From: Balanoglossus misakiensis
Taxonomy: Eukaryota; Animalia; Hemichordata
Direction: 5' to 3'
Length of the DNA: 64,000 nt
Assembly (NCBI GenBank): GCA_040954595.2
Contig: CM082589.2
Location: 7,623,186-7,687,185 of the forward strand
The notes under the pieces were generated by a model. That model was not told the DNA's origin and made no database searches. It saw only the letters and a list, made by a program, of their open reading frames with translations. Made by a program: the position numbers and the translations under genes. This document shows, one piece after another, positions 10,131 through 54,684 of the stretch (the stretch's first letter is position 1; each line of letters opens with the position of its first letter).

Positions 10131-11042
10131 ATACAAGTTACGTGTTGGGTGGTTATAAAGTAAAAACATACTCTGAAAAAAACTTTTACTGGATGCCGAA
10201 ATATTGTTTGCCCGTCACCTGGAAATGACAACGCCGTGGGTCACATGGCCACATCACGTGATTGATAGTAAAGAACACAACTCTACACCCAGTTTGAAGC
10301 ATATGTTAATCGCAAATTTTAAAATCTAAAATATAAAAAAGCAACAGATAGTGGGTGCCAAAGCCCCAGTTGTCATAATTTCAACAAATATATTTGCATA
10401 CGACCCTATCAGAGTGTGACCCACATCGGTCTAGACGCTGCGGATCCAGTAGTTCATTTGCATTTTAACGAATTTTTGGTTTATAGCTCATTTTTCAACG
10501 ACCACGTGATCAAATCAATTCAACTTTGCACTTTCACATCACACGAGGACATTCGGTTTAGTTCATATCTAGGTCGAATATAATTTTACGATTTAGGCTG
10601 TCTCCGATTAGAAAGTTTCACTACCTCCTTGGTGAATTGATGTGTTGTTCAACTTATTTAGGCTGCATTCACAAACACCTCTGGAGGGGGGGGGAGGAGA
10701 ATTGAGGGGGGGGGGGGGATTTGAAAAAATTGAGGGTATGTAAGGGGGGATTTGAAATAATTTAGGGACTGTAAAGGGGGGGGACTTGAAAACTTTGAGG
10801 ACGAAATATTTATTTTGAGTCCACAAAAATGCAGTTTTGAACCCTTCATAATACAAATTTTTCTCATGTGGGAGGGGGAAACCCCCTCCCACCCCCACCC
10901 CCGTCATTCATCTACACCTTTAAATCAGTGACTGGTTTATCTAGTGTCCCAGGTCAGGGGACTTGCCCCCCCCCCCCCCCATGCTAACTTTGAGCGCCGA
11001 AGGTTAACTTTGTCCTCCCCAACATACCGGTAGTTGAGTTAA

Positions 11043-11606
11043 TTAGGGCCCAAGCGCGCACAAGCGCTTGGGCCCTATTGGTTTCGTTGGAATTTTTTAG
11101 GGCCCAAGCGCACGCAAGCGCTTGGGCCCTATTGGTTTCGTTGGAATTTTTAGGGCCCAAGCGCAAGCAAGCGCTTGGGCCCTATTGGTTTCGTCTGGGT
11201 TTTTCTGTCTTTAGGGCCCAAGCGCTTGCTTGCGCTTGGGCCCTATTGGTTTCGTTGGGGTTTTTTAGGGCCCAAGCCAAGCCAGGCTTGGGCCCTATTG
11301 GTTTCGTTGGTATTTTTCAGTCTTTCTTTCTTTCTTTAGGGCCCAAGCGCAAGCAAGCGCTTGGGCCCTATTGGTTTCGTTGGGGTTTTTCTTTAGGGCC
11401 CAAGCGCAAGCCAGCGCTTGGGCCCTATTGGTTTCGTTGGGGTTTTTTACGGGCCCAAGCCAAGCCAGGCTTGGGCCCGTATTGGTTTCGTTGGAATTTT
11501 TAGGGCCCAAGCGCATACCAGCGCTTGGGCCCTATTGGTTTCGTTGGGGTTTTTACGGGCCCAAGCCAAGCCAGGCTTGGGCCCGTATTGGTTTCGTTGG
11601 AATTTT
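11043..11606 (+). repeat. Stack of ten 5' hairpin heads (~52-71 bp period)
   Basis: Hairpins start at 11046, 11100, 11153, 11214, 11268, 11339, 11396, 11451, 11503, 11557, each followed by TATTGGTTTCGT(T/C)..G and a T tract. Confidence 0.95.
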
Positions 11607-14600
11607 ACTTTCTTTCTTTATTCTTGTGTCAATTCTTTGACCCACGAGATCTCAGACATCGCTGCAGGTACACTTCTGAAACTTGCTACAGTGGTCAAGG
11701 TCAATGAGTAGTCGTGCATTAAACCCTTGAATTTTTAATTAGTCACGTGACCTGGCGGCCATATTGGATTTTCTGAAAATCTTTAAATGGCTTCTTCTCA
11801 AAAACCACAGGGCCAATCAAGTTCAAATTTGGTGTATGGTACACATGTCCTCTGCCCTTCAAAGTTTGACAATAAAATCCTGAGCGGTCACGTGACTTTG
11901 GCCGCCATATTGGATTTTCGAAAAAGTACAGTAAAATCTTCAAAAATCTTCTTCTCCAGAACCGGCAATAACCGAGTCATGGGATTTAGGGTATGACATC
12001 ACCTAACTGATGTCTATCAAGTTTGCGAAGAGCGTTGTGATTGGTCGAAGATAATGGCGGCCATATTGGATTTTGTAAAAACCAGCGAAAATTAAGAAAT
12101 CATTTTTCTAGTCTAAAAATAGATAGCATACAAATTCTTTTTATGGATATGAGTCGTCATATGACTAGAATATGTTGCAAATATTTTGGCAATTTTCACA
12201 TGACCTTTGACCTACTTTTTTAAGAACCTGCATATATGCATATATAGCTCATACAACGTGTTCTAAATGTACCAGAGTTCTGATTTTTGTGCACATTGGT
12301 ATCACCCCTGCCAGGACCTACCCCAAATATTTTGGTAATTTTGGCAATGACCTTTGACCTACTTTTGACACATCGTTTTTTTGCATATCTAATTCCAGGC
12401 TAACCTATAGGGCTATCATTTTGGTTTTTGGTGTATGTGTATTTGTATGTGATCAAAAAATTTCGCTACTTTTCATGACCCCTTTGACCTCTGCTGACCT
12501 CATTAAATATGTGCATACCTAATTACAGATGAACCAATAGACCTAGAGGTTTGGTTTTTGTTGGACATGAACCAGTATTGGGTCAAATTTTTTTGCCCAA
12601 ATGTTGGGTGACCTCGGATGACCTTTGACCTACTTTTGCATATCTCGACATCCACAGCAGATACAGCCTTGGCGTTTGGAGGTTTGGGGCCATAATGAAA
12701 AGCCAAAGTTTTGGGTCACCTGTGACACCTGCTTAACTCATTATTTATGTGCATACCTAATTCCGGGCTAACCAAAAGGGCTAGAGGTCTGGTTTTTGTT
12801 GAACATGGACCACTATGGGTCAACATTTTCTGCCCAAATTTTGGGTGACCTCAGATGACCTTTGACCTACTTAACACTATATCAGCACTAAACATAGATA
12901 TAATCTTGATATTTCATGGGATAAACCACAGCAATTTGTTTCTACTCATTAATTATGTGCATATCTAATAATCAGATCAGATAATAGAGCTTGGGCCCGG
13001 ACAATGCTGCTTGCAGCTTTAATTCTGTCTTTCCTTCTTTCTTCTTTCTTTCTTTCTTTATTCTTGTGTCAATTCTTTGTCGCTCTAGATCTCAGACACC
13101 GCTGCAGGTACACTTCTGAAACTTGCTACAGTGGTCAAGGTCAATGAGTAGTCGTGCATTGAACCTGTGAATTTTTAATTAGTCACGTGACCTGGCGGCC
13201 ATATTGGATTTTCTAAAAAAATGCAAATCTCAGATCTCAGAAACTACAAGTCAGATCAACTTCAAATTTGGCATGCTGGTAGACTACCTTCTACCCATCA
13301 TTTTTGTAATTGGAAATTATGCTGACAATGTTGCAGTTTTTTTGCTACAATTTTTTTTCTGAAATCTGGCTTAAATTTCAAAAATCTTCTTCTCCAGAAC
13401 CGGCAATAACCAAGTCACGCCGTTTGGGGTATGTGGTCACCTAACAGATGTCTATCAAGTTTGCGAAGATCATTGTGATTGGTCGAAGATTATGGCGGCC
13501 ATATTGGATTTTCGAAAAACCATAGTAAAAATTCAAAAATCTTCTTCTCCAGAACGGGCGATAACCGAGTCACAAGATTTGGTGTGTGTGGTCATTAAAG
13601 AGATGTCTATCAAGTTTGCGAAGGGAAATGTGATTGGTCGAAGATTACGGCGGCCATATTGGATTTTGTGAAAAACGATTAAAAAGTAAAAATTCCTTTT
13701 CTAGCCTAAAAATTGATAGCACAGAAATTCTTTTTATGGATATGAATCATCATATGACAAGAATAAGCTATAAATATTTTGGTAATTTTGGCAATGACCT
13801 TTGACCTACTTTTGACGAATCATTTTTCTGCATATCTAATTCCAGGCTAACCAATAGGGCTATAAGTTTGGTTTTTGATGTATGTGGATTTGTATGTGAT
13901 CAAAAAATTTTGCTAGTTTTCATGACCCCTTTAACCTCTGGTGACCTCATTAAATATGCGCATACCTAATTAATGATTAACCAATAGACCTAGAGGTGTT
14001 GTTTTTGTTATACATGGACCAGTATGGGGTCAGAATTTTTTGCCCAAATGTTGGGTGACCTCGGGTGACCTTTGACCTACTTTGGCATATCTTGAAATCC
14101 ACAGCAGATACAGCCTTGGCGTTTGGAGGTATAGGGCCATAATGAAAAGCCAAAGTTTTGGGTCACCTGTGACACCTGCTTAACTCATTATTTATGTGCA
14201 TACCTAATTCCGGGCTAACCAAAAGGGCTAGAGATCTGGTTTTTGTTGGACATAGACCACTATGGGTCAAAATATTCTGCCCAAATAATTGGTGACCTCT
14301 GGGTGACCTTTGACCTACTTAATACTATGTCAACACCAAACCTAGATATAACCTTGATATTTCATGGGATAAAACACAGCATTATGTTTCTACTCATTAA
14401 TTATGTGCATATCTAATAATCAGATCAGATAATAGAGCTTGGGCCCGGACAATGCTGCTTGCAGCTTTAATACTTTCTTTCTTTCTTTATTCTTGTGTCA
14501 ATTCTTTGACCCACGAGATCTCAGACACCGCTGCAGGTACACTTCTGAAACTTGCTACAGTGGTCAAGGTCAATGAGTAGTCGTGCATTGAACCCTTGAA

Positions 14601-15374
14601 TTTTTAATTAGTCACATGACCTGGCGGCCATCTTGGATTTTCTGAAAAAATGCAAATCTCAGATCTCAGAAACTACAAGTCAGATCGACTTCAAATTTGG
14701 CATGCTGGTAGACTACCTTCTTGCAATCATTTTTGTAATTGGAAATTATACTGACAAAGTTGCAATTTTTTGCTACAATTTTTTTTCTGAAATCTGGCTT
14801 AAATTTCAAAAATCTTCTTCTCCAGAACCAGTGATAACCGAGTCACGCGGTTTGGGGTATGTGGTCACCTAACTGATGTCTATCAAGTTTGCGAAGATCA
14901 TTGTGATTGGTTGAAGATTATGGCAGCCATATTGGATTTTCGAAAAACCATAGTAAAATTTCAAAAATCTTCTTCTCAAGAACCGGCGATAACTGAGTCA
15001 CAAGATTTGGTGTGTGTGGTCATTAAACAGATGTCTATCAAGTTTGCGAAGAGGAATGTGATTGGTCGAAGATTATGGCGGCCATATTGGATTTTGTGAA
15101 AAACGATTAAAAAGTAAAAATTCCCTTTCTAGCCTTAAAATTGATAGCACAGAAATTCTTTTTACGGATATGAATCATCATATGCCAAGAATAAGCTATA
15201 AATATTTTGGTAATTTTGGCAATGACCTTTGACCTACTTTTGACGCATGATTTTTCTGCATATCTAATTCCAGGCTAACCAATAGGGCTATAAGTTTGGT
15301 TTTTGATGTATGTGGATTTGTATGTGATCAAAAAATGTTGCTACTTTTCATGACCCCTTTGACCTCTGGTGACC

Positions 15375-16460
15375 TCATTAAATATGCACATACCTAATTA
15401 CAGATGAACCAATAGACCTAGAAGTTTTGTTTTTGTTATACATGGACCAGTATGGGGTCAAAATATTTTGCCCAAATTTTGGGTGACCTCGGGTGACCTT
15501 TGACCTACTTTTGCATATCTTGACATCCACAGCAGATACAGCCTTGGCGTTTGGAGGTATGGGGCAATAATGAAAAGCCAAAGTTTTGGGTCACCTGTGA
15601 TACCTGCTTAACTCATTAATTATGTGCATACCTAATTCTAGGCTAACCAAAAGGGCTAGAGGTCTGTTTTTTGATGGACATGGACCACTATGGGTCAAAA
15701 TTTTCTGCCCAAATTTTGGATGACCTCAGATGACCTTTGACGTACTTTTGCATATCTCGGCATCCAAAGCAGGTACAGCCTTGGCATTTGGAGGTATGGG
15801 GCCATAATGAAAAGCCAAAGTTTTGGGTCACCTGTGACACCTGCTTTACTCATTATTTATGTGCATACCTAATTCTAGGCTAACCAAAAGGGCTAGAGGT
15901 CTGTTTTTTGTTGGATATGGACCACTATGGGTCAAAATTTTCTGCCCAAATTTTGGATGACCTCGGGTGACCTTTGACCTACTTTTGCATATCTTGACAT
16001 CCACAGCAGATACAGCCTTGGCGTTTGGAGGTATGGGGCCATAATGTAAAGCCAAAGTTTTGGGTCACCTGTGACACCTGCTTAACTCATTAATTATGTG
16101 CATACCTAATTCTAGGCTAACCAAAAGGGCTAGAGGTCTGTTTTTTGATGGACATGGACAACTATGGGTCAAAATTTTCTGCCCAAATTTTGGATGACCT
16201 CAGATGACCTTTGACGTACTTTTGCATATCTCGGCATCCAAAGCAGGTACAGCCTTGTCATTTGGAGGTATGGGGCCATAATGAAAAGCCAAAGTTTTGG
16301 GTCACCTGTGACACCTGCTTTACGCATTATGTATGTGCATACCTAATTCCAGGCTAACCAAAAGGGCTAGAGGTCTGGTTTTTGTTGGACATGGACCACT
16401 ATGGGTCAAAATTTTCTGCCCAAATGTTGGGTGACCTCTGGGTGACCTTTGACCTACTTA
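15375..16460 (+). repeat. 237-bp internal tandem repeat expanded to ~4.5 copies in element 3
   Basis: TCACCTGTGA landmark recurs at 15591, 15828, 16065, 16302. Confidence 0.9.
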
Positions 16461-20559: not shown

Positions 20560-23500
20560 TTAGGGCACAAGCGCCCTCAGGCGCTTGTGCCCTATTGGTT
20601 TTACCCTGTTTTTTAGGGCACAAGCCAAGCAGGCTTGTGCCCTATTGGTATTACTGGGGTTTTTCATCTTTTTTTTTTTTTTTTTTTTCTTGTGTAGTTT
20701 TTTTGCTCAGGTAGATCTTGAAAACGGCTGAACCTACAAATCTCAAACTTGGCACAGTGGTGCAGGCCTATGAGAGCTGGTGCAGTATTCTCGTGAATGT
20801 TTAATAAGTCATGTGACCTGATGTCCATATATGGGCAAAGTTTTCAAATGGGCCTAATTTGCATATGAATGGAGATATCAAAATTCTTTTAGCGATTTTT
20901 GCGGACCATGTGGTCAGTGTCCTACATGCCAAATGTCAAGGCCGTGGGCCAAGTCTATTTTGAGAAGAAGATTTTTTTATTTTTCATATTTTTGGACCCA
21001 GCCATAGGCCTATACTTTCTATAGTTAAGCTATGATGCTATGTCCACGTCGGCTGTGCAATGGTCCTGTACAGTGACTATCTATTGGCCCGTGAGCAGAA
21101 TTGGACCACAATAAAAGGCAAAATTTTGGGCTCACCTGTAACACCTGCTTAACTCATTAATTATGTGCATACCTAATTCCAGGCTAACTAATACGGCTAG
21201 AGGTTTTGTTCTTGTGGGACTTGGACCAGTATGGGATCGAAAATTTTTGCCCAAATTTTGGGTGACCTCAAGTGACCTTTGACCTACTTTCCTATATCTC
21301 GGCATCCACAGCATTTACAGACTTGGCGTTTGGAGGGTTGTGACTAAAATTGAAAAGACTTAATTATGTGCATACCTAATTCCAGGCTAGCCAATAGGGC
21401 TAGAGGTTTGATTTTTGTTGAACATGGACCAGTATGAGGTTAAAATTTCTTGCCCAATTTTAGGTGACCTCAGGTGACCTTTGACCTACTTTACCATATC
21501 TCGGCAACCAGCGCAGATACAGCCTTAGCATTTGGAGGCATGGAACTCCTAATGAAGCCTTATACTTTACCTCATTAATTATGTGCATATCTAATTCTAG
21601 GTGAACCAATAGGGTTAGAGGTCTGATTTTTGTTAGACCTGGACTGGTATGGGGGTCAAAACTTTTTACCCAATTTTTTGGTGACCACATATGACCTTTG
21701 ACCTTCGGCTTAAGCTTGGGCCCGTCATCGCTGCTTGCAGCTATATTTCTTCTACTTCTTTTTCTTGTGCAGTTTTTTTGCCAACTAGGATCTTGGAAAC
21801 GGCTGAAGCTACGAATCTCAAACTTGGCACAATGGTGCAGGTCTATGAGAGCTCGTGCAGTACCCTCGTGAATGTGTAATTAGTCACATGACCTGATGAC
21901 CATATATGGGCAAAGTTTTCAAATGGGCCTAATTTGCATAGTAATGGAGATATCTAAATTCTTTTAGCGATTTTAGCAGACCATGTGGTCAGTGTCCTAC
22001 ATGCCAAATTTCAAGGCCCTGGGCCAAGTCAAGTTTGAGAAGAAGATTTTTAAATATTATATTTCATATTTTTTGTACCCATGAGCCTATACTGTCTTTA
22101 GTTAAGGTGTGATGCTATTCCCACATCTGTGCAATGGTCCTGTACAGTGACAGTCTATTGGCAGTGAGCAGAATGGGACCAAAATAAAAGGCAGAATTTT
22201 GGGCTCACCTGTAACACCTGCTTAACTCATTAATTATGTGCATACCTAATTCTGGGCTAACTAATAGGGCTAGAGGTTTCGTGCTTGTGGGACATGGACC
22301 ATTATAGGGTCAAAATTTCTTGCCCAAATTTTGCATGACCTCAGGTGACCTTTGACCTACTTTCCTATATCTCGTCATCCAGAGCAGGTACAGACTTTGA
22401 GTTTGGAGGGTTGGGACTATAATTGAAAAGCCAAAATTTGGGGTCACCTGTGACACCTGCTTATCTCATTAATTATGTGCATACCTAATTCCAGGCTAAC
22501 CAATAGGGCTAGAGGTTTGATTTTCGTTGAACGTGGACCACTATGGGATAAAATTTCTTGCCAAAATTTTGGGTGACCTCAGGTGACCTTTGACCTACTT
22601 TACCATATCTCGGCAACCAGAGCAGATACAGCCTTGGCATTTGGAGGGATGGAACTCCTAATGGAGCCTTACACTTTACCTCATTAATTATGTGCATACC
22701 TAATTCCAGGCTAGCCAATAGAGCTAGAGGTTTGATTTTTGTTGAACATGGACCAGTATGGGATTAAAATTTCTTGCCCAATTTTGGGTGACCTCAGGTG
22801 ACCTTTGACCTACTTTCCTATATCTCGGCATCCAGAACAGGTACAGCATTTGTGTTTGGATGGATCGAACTTTTGCCCAAATTTTGGGTGACCACATATG
22901 ACCTTTGACCTTCAGCTTAAGCTTGTGCCCGTCATCGCTGCTTGCAGCTATATATATATATTTTTTTTTCTTGTGTAGTTTTTTTGCTCAGTTAGATCTT
23001 GAAAACGGCTGAACCTACAAATCTCAAACTTGGCACAGTGGTGCAGGTCTATGAGAGCTCGTGCAGTACCCTCGTGAATGTGTAATTAGTCACATGACCT
23101 GATGACCATATATGGGCAAAGTTTTCAAATGGGCCTAATTTGCATATGAATGACGATATCAAAATTCTGTGCAATCATTTTGCTGACCATATGGTCAGTG
23201 TCCTACATGCCAAATTTCAAGGCTCTGGGCCAAGTCAATTTTGAGAAGAAGATTTGTAAATATTATATTTCATATTTTTTGGACCCAGCCATAGGCCTAT
23301 ACTTTCTATAGTTAAGCTATGATGCTATGTCCACATCTGTGCAATGTTTAAAAGCCAAAATTGGGGGTCACCTGTGACACCTACTTATCTCATTAATTAT
23401 GTGCATACCTAATTCCAGGCCAACCAATAGGGTTATAGGTTTGGTTTTTGTTGAACATGGACCAGTATAGGGTCAAAATTTCTTGCCCAAATTTTGGGTG

Positions 23501-24019
23501 ACCTCAGGTGACCTTTGACCTACTTTCCTATATCTCCGCTTCCAGAGCAGGTACAGATTTGGCGTTTGGAGGGTTGGGACTAAAATTTAAAAGCCAAAAT
23601 TGGGGGTCACCTGTGACACCTGCTTATCTCATTAATTATGTGCATACCTAATTCCAGGCTAACCAATAGGGCTAGAGGTTTAATTTTTGCTGAACATGGA
23701 CCAGTATGGGGTCAAAATTTCTTGCCCAAATTTTGGGTGACCTCAGGTGACCTTTGACCTACTTTACCATATCCCGGCATGCACAGCAGCTACAGCCTTG
23801 GCATTTGGAGGGATGGAACTCCTGATGGAGCCTTACACTTTATCTCATTAATTATGCACATACATAATTGTAGGCGAACCAATAGGGCTAGAGATTTTGT
23901 TCTTGTGGGACACGGACCAGTATGGGGTCAAAATTTCTTGCCCAAATTTTGGGTGACCACTTATGACCTCTGACCTTCGGCTTAAGCTTGGGCCCGTCAT
24001 CGCTGCTTGCAGCTATATT
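20560..24019 (+). mobile_element. Three divergent 'type B' elements with two GGGCACAAGC heads
   Basis: Distinct body sequence (AAACGGCTGAA..CTCAAACTTGGCACA); tails GCTTG(G/T)GCCCGTCATCGCTGCTTGCAGCTATAT; heads at 20563 and 20616. Confidence 0.8.
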
Positions 24020-27067: not shown

Positions 27068-30000
27068 GGGGGCACAAGCGCCCTCAGGCGGCTTGTGCCC
27101 CCATTGTTATTGTTGGAATTTTTCTTTATTATTAGGGCCCAAGCGCTTGCTTGCGCTTGGGCCCTATTGGTTTCGTTGGGGTTTTTCTTTAGGGCCCAAG
27201 CGCAAGCAAGCGCTTGGGCCCTATTGGTTTCGTTGGGGTTTTTTAGGGCCCAAGCGCACAGCAGCGCTTGGGCCCTATTGGTTTCGTTGGGGTTTTTCTT
27301 TCTTTCTTTCTTTCTTTCTTTATTCTTGGTTCACTTCTTTGTCGCTCTAGATCTCAGACACCACTGCAGGTACAGTTTTCAAACTTGCTACAGTGGTCAA
27401 GGTCAATGAGTAGTCGTGCATTGAACCCTTGAATTTTTAATTAGTCACGTGACCTGGCGGCCATATTGGATTTTCTGAAAAAATGCAAATCTCAGATCTC
27501 AGAAACTACAAGTCAGATCAACTTCAAATTTGCTGTGCAGGTAGTCTACCTTCTACCCATCATTTTTGTAATTGGATATTTTGCTGTAAATGTTGCAGTT
27601 TTTTTGCTACAATTTTTTTTCTGAAATCTGGCTTAAATTTCAAAAATCTTCTTCTCCAGAACCTGTGATAACCGAGTGACGCGGTTTGGGGTATGTGGTC
27701 ACCTAACTGATGTCTATCAAGTTTGATAAGAAGCATTGTGATTGGTCGAAGATTATGGCGGCCATATTGGATTTTCGAAAAACCATAGTAAAACTGCAAA
27801 AATCTTCTTCTCCAGAACGGGCGATAACTGAGTCGCAAGATTCGAGGAGTATGGTCACAACACTGATGTCTATCAAGTTTGCAAAGAGCATTATGATTGG
27901 TCGAAGATTATGGCGGCCATATTGGATTTTGTAAAAAGCTGTGAAAAATTGAAATTCCTTTTCCTAGTCTAAAAATTGATAGCATACAAACTCTTTTTAT
28001 GGATATCAATCGTCATGTGACTAAATTATGTTACAATTTTTTGGCGATTTTTCACATGACCTTTGACCTACTTTTCACACGTTATTATTTCTGCATATCT
28101 ATTTCCAGGCTAACCTATAGGGCTAGACGTTTGGTTTTTGATGCATGTGGATTAGTGTGTGATCAAAATATTTTGCTACTTTTCATGACCCCTTTGACCT
28201 CTGCTGACCTCATTAATTATGTGCATAGCTAATTACAGGCGAACCAATAGAGCTAGAGGTTTGGTTTTTGTTGGACACAGACCAGTATGGGATCAACATT
28301 TTTTGCCCAAATGTTGCGTGACCTCTGGTGACCTTTGACCTACTTTCGCATATCTCAGCATCCAGAGCAGATACAGCCATGGCATTTGGTAGGATGGGAC
28401 CAAAATGTAAAGCCACATTTTTGGGTCACCTGTGACACCTGCTGACCTCATTAAATATGCACATACCTAATTACAGGCGAACCAATAGAGCTAGAGTTTT
28501 GGTTTTTGTTGGACATGGACCAGTATGGGTAAAAAAAAATGCCCAAATGTTGGGTGACCTTAGGTGACCTTTCACCTACTTTCAGCAGCAAAAATACACA
28601 CATCCTTGTTACGTCATGAGATAATTCATCCGATAAAAAATTCTGTTTCTTCTCATTCATACTGTGCATATATAATTCAAGATCAGCGCTTGGGCCCGAC
28701 AATGCTGCTCGCAGCTTTAATCTTTCTTTCTTTCTTTCTTTCTTTTTTCTTGTGTCAATTCTTCGGCCAACTAAATCTCTGAAACTACTGCAGGTACACT
28801 GCTCAAACTTGCTACAGTGGTCAAGGTCTATGAGTAGATGTGCAGTGACTTGTGAATACTTAATTAGTCATGTGACCTGGCGGCCATATTGGATTTTCTG
28901 AAAAAAATCAAATCTCAGATCTCAGAAACTACAAGTCAGATCGACTTCAAATTTGGCATGCAGGTAGACTACCTTCTACCCATCATTTTTGTAATTGGAA
29001 ATTTTGCTGTCAATGTTGCAGTTTTTTTGCTACAATTTTTTTTCTGAAATCTGGCTTAAATTTCAAAAATCTTCTACTCCAGAACCGGTGATAACCGAGA
29101 CACAGGGTTTGGGGTATGTGGTCACCTAACTGATGTCTATCAAGTTTGCGAAGATCATTGTGATTGGTCGAAGATTATGGCGGCCATATTGGATTTTCGA
29201 AAAACCATAGTTAAACTCCAAAAATCTTCTTCTCCAGAACGGGCGATAACTGAGTTGCAAGATTCGGGGAGTATGGTCACTACACTGATGTCTATCAAGT
29301 TTGCAAAGAGCATTGTGATTGGTCGAAGATTATGGCGGCCATATTGGATTTTGTAAAAAGCAGTGAAAATTTGAAATTCCTTTTTCTAGTCTAAAAACTG
29401 ATAGCATACAAATTCTTTTTATGGATATCAATCGTCATGTGACTAAAATAGGTTACAATTTTTGGCGATTTTTCACATGACCTTTGACCTACTTATCACG
29501 CGGTATTATTTCTGCATATCTAATTCCAGGCTAACCTATAGGGCTAGACGTTTGGTTTTTGATGAATGTGGATTAGTGTGTGATCAAAATATTTTGCTAC
29601 TTTTCATGACCCCTTTGACCTCAGCTGACCTCATTAATTATGTACATAGCTAATTACAGGCGAACCAATAGAGCTAGAGGTTTTGTTTTTGTTGGACATG
29701 GACCAGTATGGGATCAAAATTTTTTGCCCAAATGATGGGTGACCTCTGGTGACCTTTGACCTACTTTCGCATATCTCAGCATCCAGAGCAGGTACAGCCG
29801 TGGCATTTGGTAGGATGGCACCAAAATGTAAAGCCAAATTTTTGGGTCACCTGTGACACCTGTTGACCTCATTAAATATGCACATACCTAATTACAGGTG
29901 AACCAATAGAGCTAGAGTTTTGGTTTTTGTTGGACATGGACCAGTATGGGTAAAAAAAATTGCCCAAATGTTGGGTGACCTCAGGTGACCTTTGACCTAC

Positions 30001-32773
30001 TTCACCCTATTTAAGCAGCAAAAATACACACATCCTTGTTATGTCATGAGATAATACATCCGATACAAAATTCTGTTTCTTCTCATTCATACTGTGCATA
30101 TATAATTCAAGATCAGCGCTTGGGCCCGACAATGCTGCTCGCAGCTTTAATTCTTTCTTTCTTTTTTCTTGTGTCAATTCTTCGGCCAACTAAATCTCAG
30201 AAACTACTGCAGGTACACTGCTCAAACTTGCTACAGTGGTCAAGGTCAATGAGTAGATGTGCAGTGACTTGTGAATACGTAATTAGTCACGTGACCTGGC
30301 GGCCATATTGGATTTTCTGAAAAAATGCAAATCTCAGATCTCAGAAACTACAAGTCAGATCGACTTCAGATTTGGTGTGCTGGTAGTGTACCTTCTGCCC
30401 ATCATTTTTGTAATTGGATATTTTGCTGTCAATGTTGCAGTTTTTTTGCTACAGTTGTTTTTCTGAAATCTGGTCAAAATTTCAAAAATCTTCTTCTCCA
30501 GAACCGGTGATAACCGAGACACGGGGTTTGGGGTATATGGTCACCTAACTGTTGTCTATCAAGTTTGCGAAGATCATTGTGATTGGTCGAAGATTATGGC
30601 GGCCATATTGGATTTACGAAAAACCATAGTTAAACTCCAAAAATCTTCTTCTCCAGAACGGGCGATGACTGAGTTGCAAGATTCGGGGAGTATGGTCACT
30701 ACACTGATGTCTATCAAGTTTGCAAAGAGCATTGTGATTGGTCGAAGATTATGGCGGCCATATTGGATTTTGTAAAAAGCAGTGAAAATTTGAAATTCCT
30801 TTTTCTAGTCTAAAATTTGATAGCATACAAATTATTTTTATGGATATCAATCGTCATGTGACTAAAATATGTTACAATTTTTTTGCGATTTTTCACATGA
30901 CCTTTGACCTACTTATCACGCGTTATTATTTCTGCATATCTAATTCCAGGCTAACCTATAGGGCTAGACGTTTGGTTTTTGATGAATGTGGATTAGTGTG
31001 TGATCAAAATATTTTGCTACTTTTCATGACCCCTTTGACCTCTGCTGACCTCATTAATTATGTGCATAGCTAATTACAGGCGAACCAATAGAGCTAGGGG
31101 TTTGGTTTTTGTTGGACATGGACCAGTATAGGATCAAAATTTTTTCCCCAAATGTTGGGTGACCTCTGGTGACCTTTGACCTACTTTCGTATATCTCAGC
31201 ATCCAGAACAGATACAACCATGGCATTTGGTAGGATGGGACCAAAATGTAAAGCCACATTTTTGGGTCACCTGTGACGCCTGCTGACCTCATTAAATATG
31301 CACATACCTAATTACAGGCGAACCAATAGAGCTAGAGTTTTGGTTTTTGTTGGACATGGACCAGTATGGGTCAAAAAAAATGCCCAAATGTCGGATGACT
31401 TCAGGTGACCTTTGACCTACTTCACCCTATTTCAGCGGCAAAAATATACACATCCTTGTTATGTCATGAGATAATACATCCGATAGAAAATTCTGTTTCT
31501 TCTCATTCATACTGTGCATATATAATTCAAGATCAGCGCTTGGGCCCGACAATGCTGCTCGCAGCTTTAATTATTATTCTTCTTCTTCTTCTTCTTCTTC
31601 CGAGAAATTCGGCCAGGTAGATCTGGAAAACCGCAGCACCTAGGGGGCTGAAACTTGGTAGGGTGATAGGGGCCAATGAGTAGACGTGCAGTGGCCCGTG
31701 AATATTTAATTAGTCATGTGACCTGGCGGCCATATTGGATTTCCTGAAAACCGTTAAATGAGTCCTTCTCAAAAACTACAAGGCCGATCGAGTTCAAACT
31801 TGGTGTGCAGGTAGCCTACCTTCTGTCCATCATTTTACCCCATTGAAATCATGACGTCACACATAAAGTTTTTTTGCTACAATTGTTTTTCTTAAAAAAT
31901 ACTTAAAATTTTAAAAATCTTCTTCTCCAGAACCAGCGGTTACCGATTCTCGGGATTTGGGATATGTGGTCACCTAACCTATGTCTATCAAGTTTGCGAA
32001 GCGCACTGTGATTGGTCGATCATTATGGCGGCCATGTTGGATTTTCGGAAAACCATTGAAAAATGAAAATTCTGTTTTGTAGCCAAAATGTTGACAGCAC
32101 GGAAATTCTTTTTTTGGATATGAGTCATCATATGACAGGAAGTTGTCACGATTTTTCGTGGCAATTTTCACATGACCTTTGACCCAGTTTTAAAACAACT
32201 AATTATATATGCATATTCCCCATACCTCCTCTTGTAAAAGCACCACATTCATGAATTTTGTGGACATGGGTACCAATGCTGTCAGGACATGACACAAATA
32301 TTTTGGTAATTTTGGCAATGACCTTTGACCTATTTCTGCATATCTAATTCCATGCTACCCAATAGGGCTAGAGGTCTGGTATTGGTTGGACATGGCCCAG
32401 TCTGGGGTCAAAATTTTATGCCCTAATTTTGGGTGACCTTGGGTGACCTTTGATCTACTTTCCCATATCTCAGCATCCAGAGCAGTTAGAGCCCTGGCTT
32501 TTATAGGTTTTGAGCACATAATGGTGTCTTACACAAGACCTCATTAATTATGTGCATACCTAATTGCAGGCGAACCAATAGGGCTAGGGGTCTGGTTTTT
32601 TGTTGGATCTAGACTAGTATGGGGTCCAATTTTTTTGCCCAAATTTGGGGTGACCTCAGGTGACCTTTGACCTACTTTCCCATGTCTTGGTATCCCCAGC
32701 AGATACAGCCGTGGAATTTGCTGGTCACCATGGGAACTGCTTGTGCCCCCCCAACGCTGCTTGCAGCTTTAAT
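27068..32773 (+). mobile_element. Divergent 'type C' element (head 27068, body 31572-32773) enclosing three nested elements
   Basis: The unique head GGGGGCACAAGC..GCTTGTGCCCCC matches the unique tail GCTTGTGCCCCCCCAACGCTGCTTGCAGC; exactly three heads and three bodies lie between them. Confidence 0.85.
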
Positions 32774-35700: not shown

Positions 35701-38700
35701 CCTAATTCCGGGCTAACCAAAAGGGCTAGAGGTCTGTTTTTGTTGGACATGGACCACTATGGGTAAAATTTTCTGCCCAAATTGTGGGTGACCTCTGGGA
35801 GACCTTTGACCTACGTAACACTATATCAGCACCAAACATACATATAACCTTGATATTTCATGGGATAAAACACAGCATTATGTTTCTACTCATTAATTAT
35901 GTGCATATCTAATAATCAGATCAGATAATAGAGCTTGGGCCCGGACAATGCTGCTTGCAGCTTTAATTCTTTCTTTATTCTTATGTCAATTCTTTGTCGC
36001 TCTAGATCTCAGACACCACTGCAGGTACAGTTTTCAAACTTGCTACAGTGGTCAAGGTCAATGAGTAGTCGTGCATTGAACCCATGAATTTTTAATTAGT
36101 CACGTGACCTGGCGGCCATATTGGATTTTCTGAAAAAATGCAAATCTCAGATCTCAGAAACTACAAGTCAGATTGACTTCAAATTTGGTGTGCAGCTAGT
36201 ATACCTAATGCCCATCATTTTTGTAATTGGATATTTTGCTGTCAATGTTGCAGTTTTTTTGCTACAGTTGTTTTTCTGAAATCTGGTCAAAATTTCAAAA
36301 ATCTTCTTCTCCAGAACCGGCGATAACCGAGTCACGCCGTTTGGGGTATGTGGTCACCTAACTGATGTCTATCAAGTTTGCGAAGATCATTGTGATTGGT
36401 CGAAGATTATGGCGGCCATATTGGATTTTCGAAAAACCATAGTAAAACTTCAAAAATCTTCTTCTCAAGAACCGGCAATAACCGAGTCACAAGATTTGGT
36501 GTGTGTGGTCATTAAATAGATGTCTATCAAGTTTGCGAAGAAGAATGTGATTGGTCGTAGATTATGGCGGCCATGTTGGATTTTGTGAAAAACGATTAAA
36601 AAGTAAAAATTCCCTTTCTAGCCTAAAAATTGATAGCACAGAAATTCTTTTTATGGATATGAATCATCATATGACAAGAATAACCTATAAATATTTTGGT
36701 AATTTTGGCAATGACCTTTGACCTACTTTTGACGCATCGTTTTTCTGCATATCTAATTCCAGGCTAACCAATAGGGCTATAAGTTTGGTTTTTGATGTAT
36801 GTGGATTTGTATGTGATCAAAAAATTGTGCTACTTTTCATGACCCCTTTGACCTCTGCTGACCTCATTAAATGTGCGCATACCTAATTACAGATGAACCA
36901 ATAGACCTAGAGGTTTGGTTTTTTTGGACATGGATCAGTATGGGGTCAAAATATTTTGCCCAAATGTTGGGTGACCTCGGGTGACCTTTGACCTACTTTT
37001 GCATATCTCGACATCCACAGCAGATACAGCCTTGGCGTTTGGAGATATGGGGCCATAATGAAAAGCCAAAGTTTTGGGTCACCTGTGACACCTGCTTAAC
37101 TCATTATTTATGTGCATACCTAATTCCGGGCTAACCAAAAGGGCTAGAGGTCTGGTTTTTGTTGGACATGGACTACTTTGGGTCAAAATTTTCTGCCCAA
37201 ATTTTGGGTGACCTCAGATGACCTTTGACCTATTTTTGCATATCTCGACATCCAAAGCAGGTACAGTCTGGGCATTTGGAGGTATGGGGCCATAATGAAA
37301 AGCCAAAGTTTTGGCTCACCTGTGACACCTGCTTTACGCATTATTTATGTGCATACCTAATTCCGGGCTAACCAAAAGGGCTAGAGGTCTGGTTTTTGAT
37401 GGACATGGACCACTATGGGTCAAAATTTTCTGCCCAAATTGTGGGTGACCTCTGGATGACCTTTGACCTACTTAATACTATATCAGCACCAAACATAGAT
37501 ATAACCTTGATATTTCATTTGCTAAAACACAGCATTATGTTTCTACTCATTAATTATGTGCATATCTAATAATCAGATCAGATAATAGAGCTTGGGCCCG
37601 GACAATGCTGCTTGCAGCTTTAATCTTTCTTTCTTTCTTTTTTCTTGTGTCAATTCTTCGGCCAACTAAATCTCAGAAACTACTGCAGGTACACTGCTCA
37701 AACTTGCTACAGTGGTCAAGGTCAATGAGTAGATGTGCAGTGACTTGTGAATACGTAATTAGTCACGTGACCTGGCGGCCATATTGGATTTTCTGAAAAA
37801 ATGCAAATCTCAGATCTCAGAAACTACAAGTCAGATCGACTTCAGATTTGGTGTGCAGGTAGTGTACCTTCTGCCCATCATTTTTGTAATTGGATATTTT
37901 GCTGTCAATGTTGCAGTTTTTTTGCTACAGTTGTTTTTCTGAAATCTGGTCAAAATTTCAAAAATCTTCTTCTCCAGAACCGGTGATAACCGAGACACGG
38001 GGTTTGGGGTATGTGGTCACCTAACTGATGTCTATCAAGTTTGCGAAGATCATTGTGATTGGTCGAAGATTATGGCGGCCATAATGGATTTACGAAAAAC
38101 CATAGTTAAACTCCAAAAATCTTCTTCTCCAGAACGGGCGATGACTGAGTTGCAAGATTCGGGGAGTATGGTCACTACACTGATGTCTATCAAGTTTGCA
38201 AAGAGCATTGTGATTGGTCGAAGATTATGGCGGCCATATTGGATTTTGTAAAAAGCAGTGAAAAATTGAAATTCCTTTTTCTAGTCTAAAAATTGATAGC
38301 ATACAAATTCTTTTTATGGATATCAATCGTCATGTGACTAAAATATGTTACAATTTTTTGGCGATTTTTCACATGACCTTTGACCTACTTACCAAGCGTT
38401 ATTATTTCTGCATATCTAATGCCAGGCCAACCTATAGGGCTAGACGTTTGGTTTTTGATGAATGTGGATTAGTGTGTGATCAAAATATTTTGCTACTTTT
38501 CATGACCCCTTTGACCTCTGCTGACCTCATTAATTATGTGCATAGCTAATTACAGGCGAACCAATAGAGCTAGAGGTTTGGTTTTTGTTGGACTAGGACC
38601 AGTATGGGGTCAAAATTTTTTGCCCAAATGTTGGGTGACCTCTGGTGACCTTTGACCTACTTTCGCATATCTCGGCATCCAGAGCAGATAAAGCCATGGC

Positions 38701-41700
38701 ATTTGGTAGGATGGGACCAAAATGTAAAGCCACATTTTTGGGTCACCTGTGACACCTGCTGACCTCATTAAATATGCACATACCTAATTACAGGCGAACC
38801 AATAGAGCTAGAGTTTTGGTTTTTGTTGGACATGGACCAGTATGGGTCAAAAAAATTGCCCAAATGTTGGGTGACCTCAGGTGACCTTTGACCTACTTCA
38901 GCAGCAAAAATACACACATCCTCGTTATGTCATGAGATAATACATCTGATAGAAAATTCTGTTTCTTCTCATTCATACTGTGCATATATAATTCAAGATC
39001 AGCGCTTGGGCCCGACAATGCTGCTCGCAGCTTTAATTCTTTCTTTATTCTTGGTTCCATTCTTTGGCCAACGAGATCTCAGACACCTCTGCAGGTACAC
39101 TTCTCAAACTTGCTACAGTGGTCAAGGTCAATGAGTAGATGTGCAGTGACTTGTGAATACTTAATTAGTCACGTGACCTGGCGGCCATATTGGATTATAT
39201 GAAAAAATTCAAATCTCAGATCTCAGAAACTACAAGTCAGATCGACTTCAAATTTGGCATGCAGGTAGACTACCTTCTACCTATCATTTTTGTAATTGGA
39301 AATTTTGCTGTCAATGTTGCAGTTTTTTTGCTACAGTTGTTTTTCTGAAATCTGGTTAAAATTTCAAAAATCTTCTTCTCCAGAACTGGTGATAACTGAG
39401 TCACGCGGTTTGGGGTATGTGGTCACCTAATTGATGTCTATCAAGTTTGCGAAGATCATTGTGATTGGTCGAAGATTATGGCGGCCATATTGGATTTTCG
39501 AAAAACCATAGTAAAACTTCAAAAATCTTCTTCTCCAGAACGGGCGATAACTGAGTCGCAAGATTTGGGGAGTATGGTCACTACACTGATGTCTATCAAG
39601 TTTGCAAAGAGCATTGTGATTGGTCGAAGATTATGGCGGCCATATTGGATTTTGTAAAAAGCAGTGAAAAATTAAAATTACTTTTTCTAGTATAAAAATT
39701 GATAGCATACAAATTCTTTTTATGGATATCAATCGTCATATGACTACAATATGTTACAAATTTTTGGCGTTTTTTCACATGACCTTTGACCTACTTTTCA
39801 CACATTATTATTTCTGCATATCTAATTCCAGGCTAACCTATAGGGCTAGACGTTTGGTTTTTGATGCAAGTGGATTAGTGTGTGATCTAAAAATTTTGCT
39901 ACTTTTCATTACCCCTTTGACCTCTGCTGACCTCATTAATTATGTGCATAGCTAATTACAGGCGAACCAATAGAGCTAGAGGTTTGGTTTTTGTTGAACA
40001 TGGACCAGTATGGGGTCAAATTTTTTTGCCCAAATGTTGGGTGACCTCTGGTGACCTTTGACCTACTTTCGCATATCTCAGCATCCAGAGCAGATACAGC
40101 CTTGGCATTTGGCAGGATGGGAGCTAAATGTAAAGCCAAATTTTTGGGTCACCTGTGACACCTGCTGACTTCATTTAATATGCACATACCTAATTACAGG
40201 CGAACCAAGAGAGCTAGAGTTTTGGTTTTTGTTGGACATGGACCAGTATGGGTAAAAAAAATTGCCCAAATGTTGGGTGACCTCATGTGACCTTTGACCT
40301 ACTTCACCCTATTTCAGCAGCAAAAATACACACATCCCTGTTATGTCATGAGATAATACATCCGATATTAAATTCTGTTTCTTCTCATTCATACTGTGCA
40401 TATATAATTCAAGATCAGCGCTTGGGCCCGACAATGCTGCTTGCAGCTTTAATTCTTTCTTGCTGTCTTTCTTTCTTTAGGGCCCAAGCGCACGCAAGCG
40501 CTTGGGCCCTATTGGTTTCGTTGGGGTTTTTTAGGGCCCAAGCCCAGCAGGCTTGGGCCCTATTGTTTTTACTGGAGTTTTTTAGGGCCCAAGCGCATAC
40601 CAGCGCTTGGGCCCTATTGGTTTCGTTGGGGTTTTTCTTTCTTTCTTTATTCTTCTGTCATTTCTTTGTCGCTCTAGATCTCAGACACCACTGCAGGTAC
40701 AGTTCTCAAACTTGCTACAGTGGTCAAGGTCAATGAGTAGTCGTGCATTGAACCCATGAATTTTTAATTAGTCACATGACCTGGCGGCCATCTTGGATTT
40801 TCTGAAAAAATGCAAATCTCAGATCTCAGAAACTACAAGTCAGATCCACTTCAAATTTGGCGTGCAGGTAGACTACCTTCTGTCAAACATTTTTGTAATT
40901 GGAAATTATGCTGTCAATGTTGCAGTTTTTTTGCTACAATTTTTTTTCTGAAATCTGGCCTAAATGTCAAAAATCTTCTTCTCCAGAACCGGTGATAACC
41001 GAGACACGGGGTTTGGGGTATGCGGTCACCTAACTGATGTCTATCAAGTTTGCGAAGATCATTGTGATTGGTCGAAGATTATGGCGGCCATATTGGATTT
41101 TCGAAAAACCCTAGTAAAATTTCAAAAATCTTCTTCTCGAGAACCGGCGATAACCGAATCACAAGATTTTGTGTGTGTGGTCATTAAACAGATGGCTATC
41201 AAGTTTGCGAAGAGGAATGTGATTGGTCGAAGATTATGGCGGCCATATTGGATTTTGTGAAAAACGATTAAAAAGTAAAAATTCCCTTTCTAGCCTAAAA
41301 ATTGATAGCACAGAAATTCTTTTCATGGATATGAATCATCATATAACAAGAATAAGCTATAAATATTTTGGTAATTTTGGCAATGACCTTTGACCTACTT
41401 TTGACGCATCAATTTTCTGCATATCTAATTCCAGGCTAACCAATAGGGCTATAAGTTTGGGTTTTGATGTATGTGAATTTGTATGTGATCAAAAAATTTT
41501 GCTACTTTTCATGACCCCTTTGACCTCTGCTGACCTCATTAAATATGCGCATACCTAATTACAGATGAACCAATAGACCTAGAGGTTTGGTCTTTTTTGG
41601 ACATTGATCAGTATGGGGTCAAAATAATTTGTCCAAATTTTGGGTGACCTCAGGTGACCTTTGACCTACATTCGCATTTCTCGGTATCCAAAGCAGATAC

Positions 41701-42060
41701 AGCCTTGGCGTTTTGAGGTATGGGGTCATAATGAAAAGCCAAATTTTTGGGTCACCAGTGACACCTGCTGACCTCATTAAATATGCACATACCTAATTAC
41801 ACGCAAACTAATAGAGCTAGAGTTTTGGTTTTTGTTGGACATGGACCACTATGGGTCAAAATTTTCTGCCCAAATTGTGGGTGACCTCTGGGTGACCTTT
41901 GACCTGCTTAACACTATATCAACACCAAACATAGATATAACCTTGATATGTCATGGGATAAAACACAGCATTATGTTTCTACTCATTAATTATGTGCATA
42001 TCTAATAATCAGATCAGATAATAGAGCTTGGGCCCGGACAATGCTGCTTGCAGCTTTAAT

Positions 42061-43468
42061 CTTTTTCTTCTTCTTCTTCTTCTTCTTCTGTCGTTTTTTC
42101 GGCCAGGTAGATCTGGGAAACGGCTAAACCTACCAATTTCAAACTTGGCACAATGGTGCAGGCCAATGAGAGCTAGTGCAGTACCCTTGTGAATGTTTAA
42201 TTAGTCACGTGACCTGATGACCATATAAGGACAAAATTTTCAAATTGGCCTTATTTGCATATGAATGGACATATCAAAATTCTTTTAGCAAGCTTTACGG
42301 ACCATATGGCCAGGGTTCTACATGCCAAATGTCAAGGCCATAGGCCATGTCAATTTTGATAAGAAGATTTTTAAGTATTATTTTTCATATTTTTCGCCCA
42401 AGCCATGGGCCTATACCTTACATAGTAAAGCTATGAACACATATTATTTTGGATAAATATGCATACATATCTCAAAATCTGTAAGGCCGATCATCTCCAA
42501 CTTTGGTGTGCAGCAAGCCTAGCATTTGTCAATAATTTTAAGCAAAAAAAAATAATATGAAAAATCGACCGATTTTTTTATATTAATTTTTTTATTAAAT
42601 TTATTCCTTTACTTATACCTCTATGGTTAAGCTATGTCCATGTCTTATTGTGGAATTCTTCTGGTCTGTGCAATGTACAGTGACTGTCTATTGGTCAGTG
42701 AGCACAATGGCACCAAAATAAAAGGCAAAATTTTAGGCTCACCTGTAACACCTGCTTAACTCATTAATTATGTGCATACCTAATTCTGGGCTAACTAAGA
42801 GGGCTAGAGGTTTCGTTCTTGTGGGACATGGACCAGTATAGGGTCAAAATTTCTTGCCAAAATTTGGGGTGACCTCAGGTGACCTTTGACCTACTTTCCT
42901 ATATCTCGGCATCCAGAGCAGGTACAGACTTGGCGTTTGGAGGGTTGGGACTTAAGTTGAAAAGCCAAAATAGGGGTCACCTGTGACACCTGCATATCTC
43001 ATTAATTATGTGCATACCTAATTCCAGGCTAACCAATAGGGCTATAGGTTTGGTTTTTGTTGAACGTGGACCAGTATAGGGTCAAAATTTATTGCCCAAC
43101 TTTTGCATGACCTCAGGTGACCTTTGACCTACTTTACCATATCTTGGCATCGAGAGCAGGTACAGACTTGGCGTTTGGAGGGTTGGGACTAAAATTGAAA
43201 AGCCAAATTGGGGGGGTCACCTGTGACACCTGCCTACCTCATTTATTATGTGCATACCTAATTCCAGGCTAACCAATAGGGCTATAGGTTTGGTTTTTGA
43301 TGAACATGGACCAGTATAGGGTCAAAATTTCTCGCCCAAATTTTGCATGACCTCAGGTGACCTTTGACCTTCTTTTCCATATCTTGGCATCCAGAGCAGA
43401 TATGCTTATTGCTATGTTGCTATGTGCTATGTTGGCTTGGGCCCGCCATTGCTGCTTGCAGCTATATT
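42061..43468 (+). mobile_element. Type B element body (its head inferred at 40534)
   Basis: Homologous to the 20690-24019 bodies; tail GCTTGGGCCCGCCATTGCTGCTTGCAGCTATAT. Confidence 0.8.
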
Positions 43469-46400
43469 TACGGGCCCAAGCCAAGCCAGGCTTGGGCCCG
43501 TATTGGTTTCGTTGGGGTTTTTCAGTCTTTCTTTCTTTCCTTCTTTATTCTTGGTTCCATTTTTCGGCCACCTAAATCTCAAAAACTGCAGCACCAACCA
43601 GGCTGAAACTTGGTAGGCAGATAGGGGCCAATGAGTAGATGTGCAGTGGCTCGTGAATATGTAATTAGTCACGTGACCTGGCGGCCATATTGGATTTTCT
43701 GAAAAAATGCAAATCTCAGATCTCAGAAACTACAAGTCAGATTGACTTCAAATTTGGTGTGCAGCTAGTATACCTTATGCCCATCATTTTTGTAATTGGA
43801 TATTATGCTGTCAATGTTGCAGTTTTTTTGCTACAGTTGTTTTTCTGAAATCTGGTCAAAATTTCAAAAATCTTCTTCTCCAGAACCGGCGATAACCGAG
43901 TCACGCTGTTTGGGGTATGTGGTCACCTAACTGATGTCTATCAAGTTTGCGAAGATCATTGTGATTGGTCGAAGATTATGGTGGCCATATTGGATTTTCG
44001 AAAAACCATAGTAAAACTTCAAAAATCTTCTTCTCCAGAACGGGCGATAACCGAGTCAAAATATTTGGTGTGTGTGGTCATTAAACAGATGTCTATCAAG
44101 ATTGCGAAGGGGAATGTGATTGGTCGAAGATTATGGCGGCCATATTGGATTTTGTGAAAAACGATTAAAAAGTAAAAATTCCCTTTCTAGCCTAAACATT
44201 GATAGCACAGAAATTCTTTTTATGGATATGAATCATCAAATGAGAAGAATAAGCTATAAATATTTTGGTAATTTTGGCAATGACCTTTGACCTACTTTTG
44301 ACGCATCATTTTTCTGCATATCTAATTCCAGGCTAACCAATAGGGCTATAAGTTTGGTTTTTGATGTATGTTGATTTGTATGTGATCAAAAAATTTTGCT
44401 ACTTTTCATGACCCCTTTGACCTCTGCTGACCTCATTAAATATGCACATACCTAATTAATGATGAACCAATAGACCTAGAGGTTTTGTTTTTGTTATACA
44501 TGGACCAGTATGGGGTCAAAATATTTTGCACAAATGTTGGGTGACCTCAGGTGACCTTTGACCTACTTTTGCATATCTCGACATCCACAGCAGATACAGC
44601 CTTGGCGTTAGGAGGTATGGGGCTATACTGAAAAGCCAAAGTTTTGGGTCACCTGTGACACCTGCTTAACTCATTATTTATGTGCATACCTAATTCCGGG
44701 TTAACCAAAAGGGCTAGAGGTCTGGTTTTTGTTGGACATGGACCACTATGGGTCAAAATATTCTGCCCAAATTGTGGGTGACCCCTGGGTGACCTTTGAC
44801 CTACTTAACACTATATCAGCACCAAACATAGATATAACCTTGATATTTCATGGGATAAAACACAGCATTATGTTTCTACTCATTAATTATGTGCATATCT
44901 AATAATCAGATCAGATAATAGAGCTTGGGCCCGGACAATGCTGCTTGCAGCTTTAATCTTTCTTTCTTTTTTCTTGTGTCAATTTCTTCGGCCAACGAGA
45001 TCTCTGAAACTACTGCAGGTACACTTCTCAAACTTGCTACAGTGGTCAAGGTCAATGAGTAGATGTGCAGTGACTTGTGAATAATTAATTAGTCACGTGA
45101 CCTGGCGGCCATATTGGATTTTCTGAAAAAATTCAAATCTCAGATCTCAGAAACTACAAGTCAGATCGACTTCAAATTTGGCATGCAGGTAGACTACCTT
45201 CTACCCATCATTTTTGTAATTGGAAATTTTGCTGTCAATGTTGCAGTTTTTTTGCGACAATTTTTTTTCTGAAATCTGGCTTAAATTTCAAAAATCTTCT
45301 TCTCCAGAACCAGTGATAACCGAGACACGGGGTTTGGGGTATGTGGTCACCTAACTGATGTCTATCAAGTTTGCGAAGATCAGTGTGATTGGTCGAAGAT
45401 TATGGCGGCCATATTGGATTTTGGAAAAACCATAGTTAAACTCCAAAAATCTTCTTCTCCAGAACGGGCGATGACTGAGTCGCAAGATTCGGGGAGTATG
45501 GTCACTACACTGATGTCTATCAAGTTTGCAAAGAGCATTGTGATTGGTCGAAGATTATGGCGGCCATATTGGATTTTGTAAAAAGCAGTGAAACATTGAA
45601 ATTCCTTTTTCTAGTCTAAAAATTGATAGCATACAAATTCTTTTTATGGATATCAATCGTCATGTGACTAAAATATGTTACAATTTTTTGGCGATTTTTC
45701 ATATGACCTTTGACCTACTTATCACGCGTTAGTATTTCTGCATATCTAATTCCAGGCTAACCTATAGGGCTAGACGTTTGGTTTTTGATGCATGTGGATT
45801 AGTGTGTGATCAAAATATTTTGCTACTTTTCATGACCCCTTTGACCTCTGCTGACCTCATTAATTATGTGCATAGCTAATTACAGGCGAACCAATAGAGC
45901 TAGAGGTTTGGTTTTTGTTGGACACAGACCAGTATGAGATCAAAAATTTTTGCCCAAATGTTGCGTGACCTCTGGTGACCTTTGACCTACTTTCGCATAT
46001 CTCAGCATCCAGAGCAGATACAGCCATGGCATTTGGTAGGATGGGACCAAAATGTAAAGCCACATTTTTGAGTCACCTGTGACACCTGCTGACCTCATTA
46101 AATATGCACATACCTAATTACAGGCGAACCAATAGAGCTAGAGTTTTGGTTTTTGTTGGACATAGACCAGTATGGGTCAAAAAATTTTGCCCAAATGTTG
46201 GGTGACCTCAGGTGACCTTTGACCTACTTTACCCTATTTCAGCAGCAAAAATACATACGTCTTTGTTATGTCATGAGATAAAACACCTGATAGAGCATTC
46301 TGTTTCTTCTCATTCATACTGTGCATATTATACCGGATCAGCGCTTGGGCCCGACAATGCTGCTTGCAGCTTTAATTTACGGGCCCAAGCCAAGCCAGGC

Positions 46401-54350: not shown

Positions 54351-54454
54351 CTTTCTTTAAAATTATAGCCTTTCCCCTCTAATACAACAGATGTTACTCG
54401 TTTATACACATTTCAGTCGTACAGTTCTAATTGCAGGGATAAAAAGTCAACACC

Positions 54455-54615: not shown

Positions 54616-54684
54616 AAACACTGCAGTGAGGTACGAGATACAGTTCATTAAAATTCTCGACACACACGTCTATATACATGGTAT

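Follow-up and report, generated by a model that had tools for sequence, protein, structure and literature searches.

Our analysis shows that a 41,380-bp block on the + strand of the window, the 64-kb stretch of DNA analysed here, is a nest of non-autonomous Helentrons of the HINE/DINE-1 type (window positions 11045–52424; all features below lie on the + strand unless stated otherwise). The nest comprises 28 bodies with their tails and 26 heads from four families, reaches a depth of ten heads, and contains no long open reading frame. The most probable explanation, to which we assign a probability of roughly 60%, is that the transposase of the family prefers long T-rich tracts on one strand and that each copy carries such a target itself, so that every insertion feeds a chain reaction.

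Each head consists of a 10-nt subTIR, a loop of 7–11 nt, the inverted repeat of the subTIR, a spacer and the start of a T tract, and each tail of a 3′ subTIR followed by a short palindrome and then T. Ten 53-bp heads are stacked at 11045–11606 in the family order B,B,B,B,A,B,A,A,A,A′, each cut by the next, and a further 16 heads and 28 tails reach to 52424, all on the + strand. The exact motif TATTGGTTTCGTTGG is present 19 times, with variants in 7 of the 26 heads. The outermost copy, or founder, opens with a 5′ subTIR and its inverted repeat (11046–11075), predicted to form a hairpin of −17.4 kcal/mol (DNA parameters). In its tract, the spacer and first T run (11076–11098) mark the commonest insertion point, 22–23 nt behind the hairpin. 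The founder closes with a 3′ subTIR and short palindrome at 52392–52424, where the last non-T base lies 23 nt after the subTIR. The innermost intact copy (A′, 11555–13022) shows head, tract, body, 3′ subTIR and palindrome.

The bodies are 1.1–2.1 kb long and fall into families A/A′ (14), B (9), C (4) and D (1), the highest pairwise identity among the 28 being 97.7%. Most A and B bodies carry about two copies of a 155-bp central tandem repeat (e.g., 13373–13676), and a 237-bp central tandem repeat (e.g., 15374–16459, 4.6 copies) is the cause of most body length variation. The longest ATG frame in the nest is 120 aa, and stop-to-stop frames correspond to head repeats or short body stretches. The subTIR motif was not found inside bodies at up to one mismatch, and no family sequence was found in the window outside the block. 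Within family A, bodies with 97.5–97.7% identity carry different hairpin-loop types (heads 17731/43472 and 11503/11268), suggestive of head swapping. Elsewhere in the window, an exon-like frame at 62851–63243 (+) matches the extracellular link (Xlink) domain (E 1e-26), which suggests that the host is an animal, and frames at 56729–57660 resemble further exons, with no Pfam match above the cut-off.

The initial annotation had proposed a non-autonomous Helentron mobilised by an HUH RepHel enzyme, and the anatomy bears out this class assignment, the partner enzyme being presumed; no autonomous RepHel partner was found within the 64-kb window. HINE/DINE-1 elements are themselves non-autonomous Helentrons (also HLE2 or Helitron2), as far as the accessible accounts describe them (PMC4067079, PMC7492417, PMC3627910, PMC11417382). 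By the same descriptions, they share with the nest a 5′ subTIR hairpin, a microsatellite, central tandem repeats and a lack of coding sequence, as well as a 3′ subTIR followed by a short palindrome, a T-rich target, and T at both ends. In the nest, the 10-nt core of the 5′ subTIR starts 1–2 nt after the terminal T, the 3′ subTIR ends 22–24 nt before the last non-T base, and the 5′ hairpin is found in 26 of 26 heads with loops of 7–11 nt. The short palindrome is present in 28 of 28 tails, its predicted stem being weak, and the microsatellite and central repeats are represented by (TTTC)n/(TTC)n/T tracts and by the 155- and 237-bp repeats. In contrast to published accounts of HINEs, which in their accessible parts give clustering or neighbouring insertions, the carried microsatellite is itself the insertion site here.

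To reconstruct the nesting, heads were allowed to open and tails to close in a greedy bracket parse, and families were compared within each head–body pair. Head family equals body family in all 26 parsed pairs, leaving two bodies headless. Among 20,000 shuffles, the mean number of orphans was 19 and the minimum 10, and two or fewer were reached in none (0/20,000), a null that is generous in that head classes were set after the body tree was known. Moreover, 5′ and 3′ subTIRs are identical in 25 of 26 pairs, among them the single D-family copy (27068–32772), which encloses three nested B copies and whose variant subTIR matches only its own tail, 5.7 kb away. The sole pair with differing 5′ and 3′ subTIRs, 20616/21714, differs at one base. 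Because families match in 26 of 26 pairs and the subTIR ends agree, the block is a true nest ten heads deep and not a tandem array. The initial annotation had counted 28 elements, which is correct for bodies and tails, but only 26 heads are present.

It is hardly credible that separate arrays of heads and bodies arose instead by tandem duplication, unequal crossing-over, rolling-circle concatemers or mis-assembly. The heads do form a 53-bp quasi-tandem array, the two missing heads could reflect slippage or collapse, and no listed contig spans the junction stretch tested. However, such processes are at odds with the last-in-first-out family matching in 26 of 26 pairs, with neighbouring bodies that are mostly not closest relatives and never more than 97.7% identical, and with exact tail–head junctions that in five of six cases join different families. 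We also rejected circle formation by homologous recombination, which would be expected to give a head–body–tail–head order and family chimeras rather than a last-in-first-out match.

The headless bodies of the greedy parse end in tails at 23986 and 37590 and are confined to the intervals 20562–24017 and 11267–37623. The first interval holds three C-family bodies with two heads; the second contains an A-family body (35967–37623) without its own head, for which the body ending at 27065 is an alternative. They may have arisen when copying in a donor nest ran on beyond an inner tail (end bypass), or through loss of one 53-bp head between direct repeats. The one-head-two-tail units fit such read-through, and end bypass is demonstrated for Helraiser in the accessible part of that report (PMC4778049). 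Heads without a body were not found, and two-head-one-tail units, as in FoHeli, are absent from the nest. This absence may bear on which end starts copying.

Strikingly uniform positions were observed for the insertions themselves. All 25 inner heads lie in the 5′ T-rich tract of a host copy and none elsewhere in another element, in agreement with the initial annotation, and none is inverted; correspondingly, the window contains no minus-strand head motif at up to two mismatches. Sixteen of the 25 start directly behind the host hairpin, at 22–23 nt (11), 26 nt (2), 30, 33 and 42 nt. The other nine start behind an earlier tail in the same tract, six with just 2–3 T between and three at 6, 14 and 26 nt. 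The six close junctions (24019, 27066, 32773, 43468, 46376 and 48107) are those that had been read as sibling insertions at earlier tails, a reading that we confirm. One group of three siblings (B, A, A; 40479–49583) is joined tail-to-head at one point, 48–53 nt into the tract of the host at 11099.

In host coordinates, the insertion window spans 22–53 nt; the range of 20–45 nt given initially was thus right in being narrow and strand-specific, but slightly too small. As had been described, the majority of inner insertions lie within (TTTC)n or where it begins, whereas hosts of families C and D received theirs in tracts of T, (TTC)n or (ATT)n, the D copy in an (ATT)n stretch, and the founder sits in a short T run. 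T flanks both sides in 26 of 26 copies, with no longer target duplication. Interrupted tracts contain about 2 T more than intact ones, which could represent element ends or a TT duplication.

Can these positions be explained by a preference for T runs as such? Among the 24 of 26 elements that were rebuilt (two holding a headless body were dropped), runs of at least five T number 41 in tracts, 227 elsewhere on the + strand, and 174 on the − strand. With just 9% of such runs located within the tract, the chance that all insertions land there is 1.3e-28 (computed for 27 events), and a plain T-run preference as sole cause is therefore rejected. The bodies are, as the initial annotation had stated, rich in short T runs, but none of these resembles the tract: TTTCTTT occurs 77 times in head tracts and not once elsewhere on either strand of the 24 rebuilt elements. 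Two long tetranucleotide microsatellites of the window, AGAT (∼95 copies) and TGTA (∼152 copies) at 54443–55200 and 57659–58311, hold no family copy.

Segment scores separate the tracts from the remaining sequence. Tracts score 14.2–33.4, with at least 17.5 for tracts that were hit, body segments score at most 12.3, and T-rich tracts in the 22.6 kb of flank at most 16.9 (excluding two TC/TATC microsatellites). Tract scores showed no difference between hosts that had been hit and those that had not (P 0.48; 14 versus 10). The head hairpin, at −17 kcal/mol, is the strongest in each of the four elements scanned. In every copy, the hairpin adjoins the sole long pyrimidine tract rich in T, and the effects of the two are confounded.

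A rule based on sequence only, a T run followed by 14 of 16 pyrimidines with at least 10 T, selects 85 sites in tracts and one outside and accommodates the positions well (P of 25/25 ∼0.7), being tuned post hoc among ten definitions in one test and six in another. A 12-nt version of the rule fails (P 0.0006–0.007). Six to eight T runs in the flanks satisfy the sequence rule yet hold no copy. The richness of the tract in T is confined to one strand, which suffices to account for one-way insertion; such insertion is also general for Rep transposons (PMC10288648).

The initial annotation had instead suggested that the resident hairpin or subTIR recruits the transposase. For the hairpin, this does not follow from the data, in which hairpin and tract are confounded, the sequence rule fits 25 of 25 insertions, and the founder site has no hairpin above background. 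In IS200/IS605 elements such as IS608, an HUH transposase that binds a hairpin performs one-way single-strand insertion without target duplication; there, the guide to the target sits in the end of the moving element itself and not in a resident copy. For the subTIR, the proposal stands in part: 19 of 25 inner heads start 22–26 nt after the nearest upstream GCTTG(G/T)GCCC, located in either a head arm or a tail subTIR, and five junction insertions precede a weak stub. We therefore consider it possible, though at odds well below even, that the transposase binds resident GCTTG(G/T)GCCC and nicks at a T ∼22–26 nt downstream, a spacing that it probably also applies at its own 3′ end, with the T-rich tract still needed. 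The head arm together with the T run would then mimic a 3′ end, and true tails and heads would both serve as acceptors.

Several observations agree with such an anchored cut. The element's own last non-T base lies 22–24 nt after its 3′ subTIR. The first T run is used in 11 of 16 cases (P 0.0003–0.005, for a downstream requirement of up to 12 nt and TT weights), and six of nine insertions behind a tail are at the exact junction (P 0.0003–0.0015, with all T runs of the tract as candidates). Five of the junction insertions have just a weak stub (score 10.9) downstream, and intact head tracts seem favoured over tract remainders. On the other hand, six of 25 cuts are off this ruler (29–49 nt), all of them within the tract, head and tail spacings differ by 2–4 nt, and TT sites 3–13 nt behind the hairpin are never used. 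Most of the 5′ bias fades once the rule demands a downstream pyrimidine stretch of 16 nt (P 0.03 for the first run and 0.6 for the junction, with TT weights). The order of siblings is not known, insertion events are not independent, and the founder site has neither subTIR motif nor hairpin. More tentative still is an extended form in which resident copies act as landing pads, where the subTIR is bound and T is cut ∼22–26 nt downstream, and in which the head has evolved to mimic the 3′ end and thereby steers new copies.

The founder site and copies outside the nest show how strict the targeting is. The founder interrupts a MITE-like element of ∼0.8 kb at a short T run. This element (10658–11044 plus 52425–52831), with the nest in its middle, has 37-nt terminal inverted repeats (left, 10658–10694, +; right, 52795–52831, −) and a likely TA duplication. 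The sequence upstream of the founder site folds at −3.4 kcal/mol, a stability shared by 46% of 366 60-mers from the flanks. As this fold is at background, a chance hairpin ahead of the insertion point was rejected. No family motif was found near the site, and its flank scores 5.0 with 10 of 16 pyrimidines. The founder flank thus fails the sequence rule, indicating that weaker sites are used too, and with a background fold and a poor tract score at this site, neither the hairpin nor the long tract is strictly required.

For copies outside the nest, one stretch was compared with contigs from three runs of one sample, with tract letters masked. The family is highly repeated in these contigs, whose depth does not equal copy number. 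Nineteen contigs of one run that leave the tail give a plurality line with 20 T in 25 letters at an agreement of 0.5, a line equally compatible with host T tracts and with remnants of nested tracts; random flanks give 9.4 T and an agreement of 0.40, and a mix with about half tract-like flanks approaches the 19-contig line. In three contigs of a small run, the tail leads into sequence that is T-rich but not a tract. The tail is also joined, with its orientation kept, to positions 48303 and 48425, both within bodies (sides of 23–25 letters, 85% likeness); these two joints give a weak hint of body insertions elsewhere and may be deletions. A strand change was seen in none of the five joints listed. 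Owing to the founder site, the non-tract contig flanks and the two weak joints, the targeting is a strong preference and not a strict safe harbour. That term, used in the initial annotation, overstates the case for a family whose founder sits in a short T run of another element and whose other copies have varied flanks.

A scan of metagenome contigs for the tail pattern returned two loci, related to the nest over ∼40 nt of tail only; in genome contigs and in viral contigs the scan returned none. The two loci (L001, 71–200; L002, 2894–2921 and 2513) have the same tail design with unrelated bodies, and their tails run into (ATT)n or (AT)n, beyond which lies other repeat-like sequence. They are possibly nests of a related family in another animal.

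Under the carried-target explanation, a RepHel transposase from an autonomous partner would mobilise the non-coding copies, and the incoming strand would be joined at T/T at the start of a long one-stranded T tract, presumably as a single strand and with a steep preference for long tracts. An APE endonuclease carried by Helentrons perhaps assists by setting the poly-T preference. HINEs prefer T-rich targets, and Thomas et al. propose, in the accessible part of their account, that the APE endonuclease sets this preference (PMC4067079). Because each landing would bring in a fresh best target, the nest would grow as a branching process. A point against the carried target is that five tail-junction insertions occurred before a stub that scores 10.9, less than eleven unused flank tracts (12.2–16.9).

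We compared the nest with equal-rate branching. Its tree is higher (9 versus 5.7 expected, P 0.015) and has fewer leaves (10 versus 14 expected, P 0.01), in a window that was chosen for depth. Under equal rates, ∼65–77% of copies would need to be nested to obtain one nest of 28 among 1e3–1e5 founders. Private differences showed no correspondence with depth (family B, rho 0.47, P 0.2; family A, rho −0.05) and gave no order. The outermost copy carries only 0.86% of such differences, and together these values suggest a fast burst from varied donors.

The flat private differences and the 0.86% of the outermost copy would equally allow the import of older sub-nests, and the two headless bodies fit read-through composites. 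It is nevertheless improbable that the nest grew mainly through movement of ready-made sub-nests, or at a local hot spot of open or single-stranded DNA or local hopping, with an ordinary T preference picking the base. Moving sub-nests leaves the tract choice of each original insertion unexplained, an ordinary T-run preference was rejected, and near-identical sub-nests were not found in the window, where the top body identity is 97.7%. Helraiser showed no local hopping in 701 events, by the accessible part of the report (PMC4778049), but belongs to Helitron1.

Related behaviour has been described for several other systems. In FoHeli of Fusarium oxysporum, 5′ termini are stacked through self-insertion (PMC5148889), and HelenXT233 has two left ends (PMC11417382). 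By the portions of these accounts available, 5′ ends are in excess there, whereas the nest, on a much larger scale, is two heads short and has a matching body for every head. MINE-1 of Lepidoptera, as far as its description extends, is Helitron-like and DINE-1-like and inserts in GAAA microsatellites, (GAAA)n being the other strand of (TTTC)n (PMC3812793). In contrast to the nest, it is described as hitting host microsatellites. Telomere Helitrons of Paramecium likewise hit one strand of a simple repeat, which in the accessible text is proposed to cause their absolute orientation bias and arrays; they differ in that the target is the host telomere repeat, the elements are autonomous, and they form a separate clade (PMC13085455). 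SaTar microsatellite-targeted MULEs, in turn, form mixed-family arrays by repeated microsatellite insertion, but the accessible account has them as DDE cut-and-paste elements with long TIRs, whose arrays are non-nested since the microsatellite lies outside the element (PMC5907723). A SaTar-type MULE as the source of the block was ruled out by the asymmetric short subTIRs, the absence of an 8–11 bp duplication, and the full nesting.

For Helitron-like elements, the literature thus already contains reports of T-rich and (GAAA)n targets, of insertion in one orientation and of self-insertion. Neither a Helentron nesting recursively in its own microsatellite at such a scale nor a subTIR-anchored target choice was found in the literature covered; with subscription journals and Repbase reports outside this coverage, both absences are weak. 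The nest is an extreme form of known HINE behaviour, most simply explained by the carried target.

Target choice of Helentrons has so far been known just as "T-rich". In the nest, 25 insertion events are mapped within a single known acceptor sequence, and they yield two testable rules, a long one-stranded T tract versus a subTIR plus spacing. An engineering value would exist only if the subTIR rule is true; if the landing-pad reading holds, the head would provide a eukaryotic rolling-circle transposase with an acceptor site that is short, portable and one-way. For genome annotation, the nest is a warning that repeat annotators will break such structures up, reporting the heads as "satellites" and the bodies as truncated. 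With a target of its own on board, an element can expand one insertion into a 41-kb repeat whose outermost copy has diverged by less than 1%, and nest growth offers an origin for stacked 5′ ends, for bodies without heads, and for satellite-like blocks at dispersed sites.
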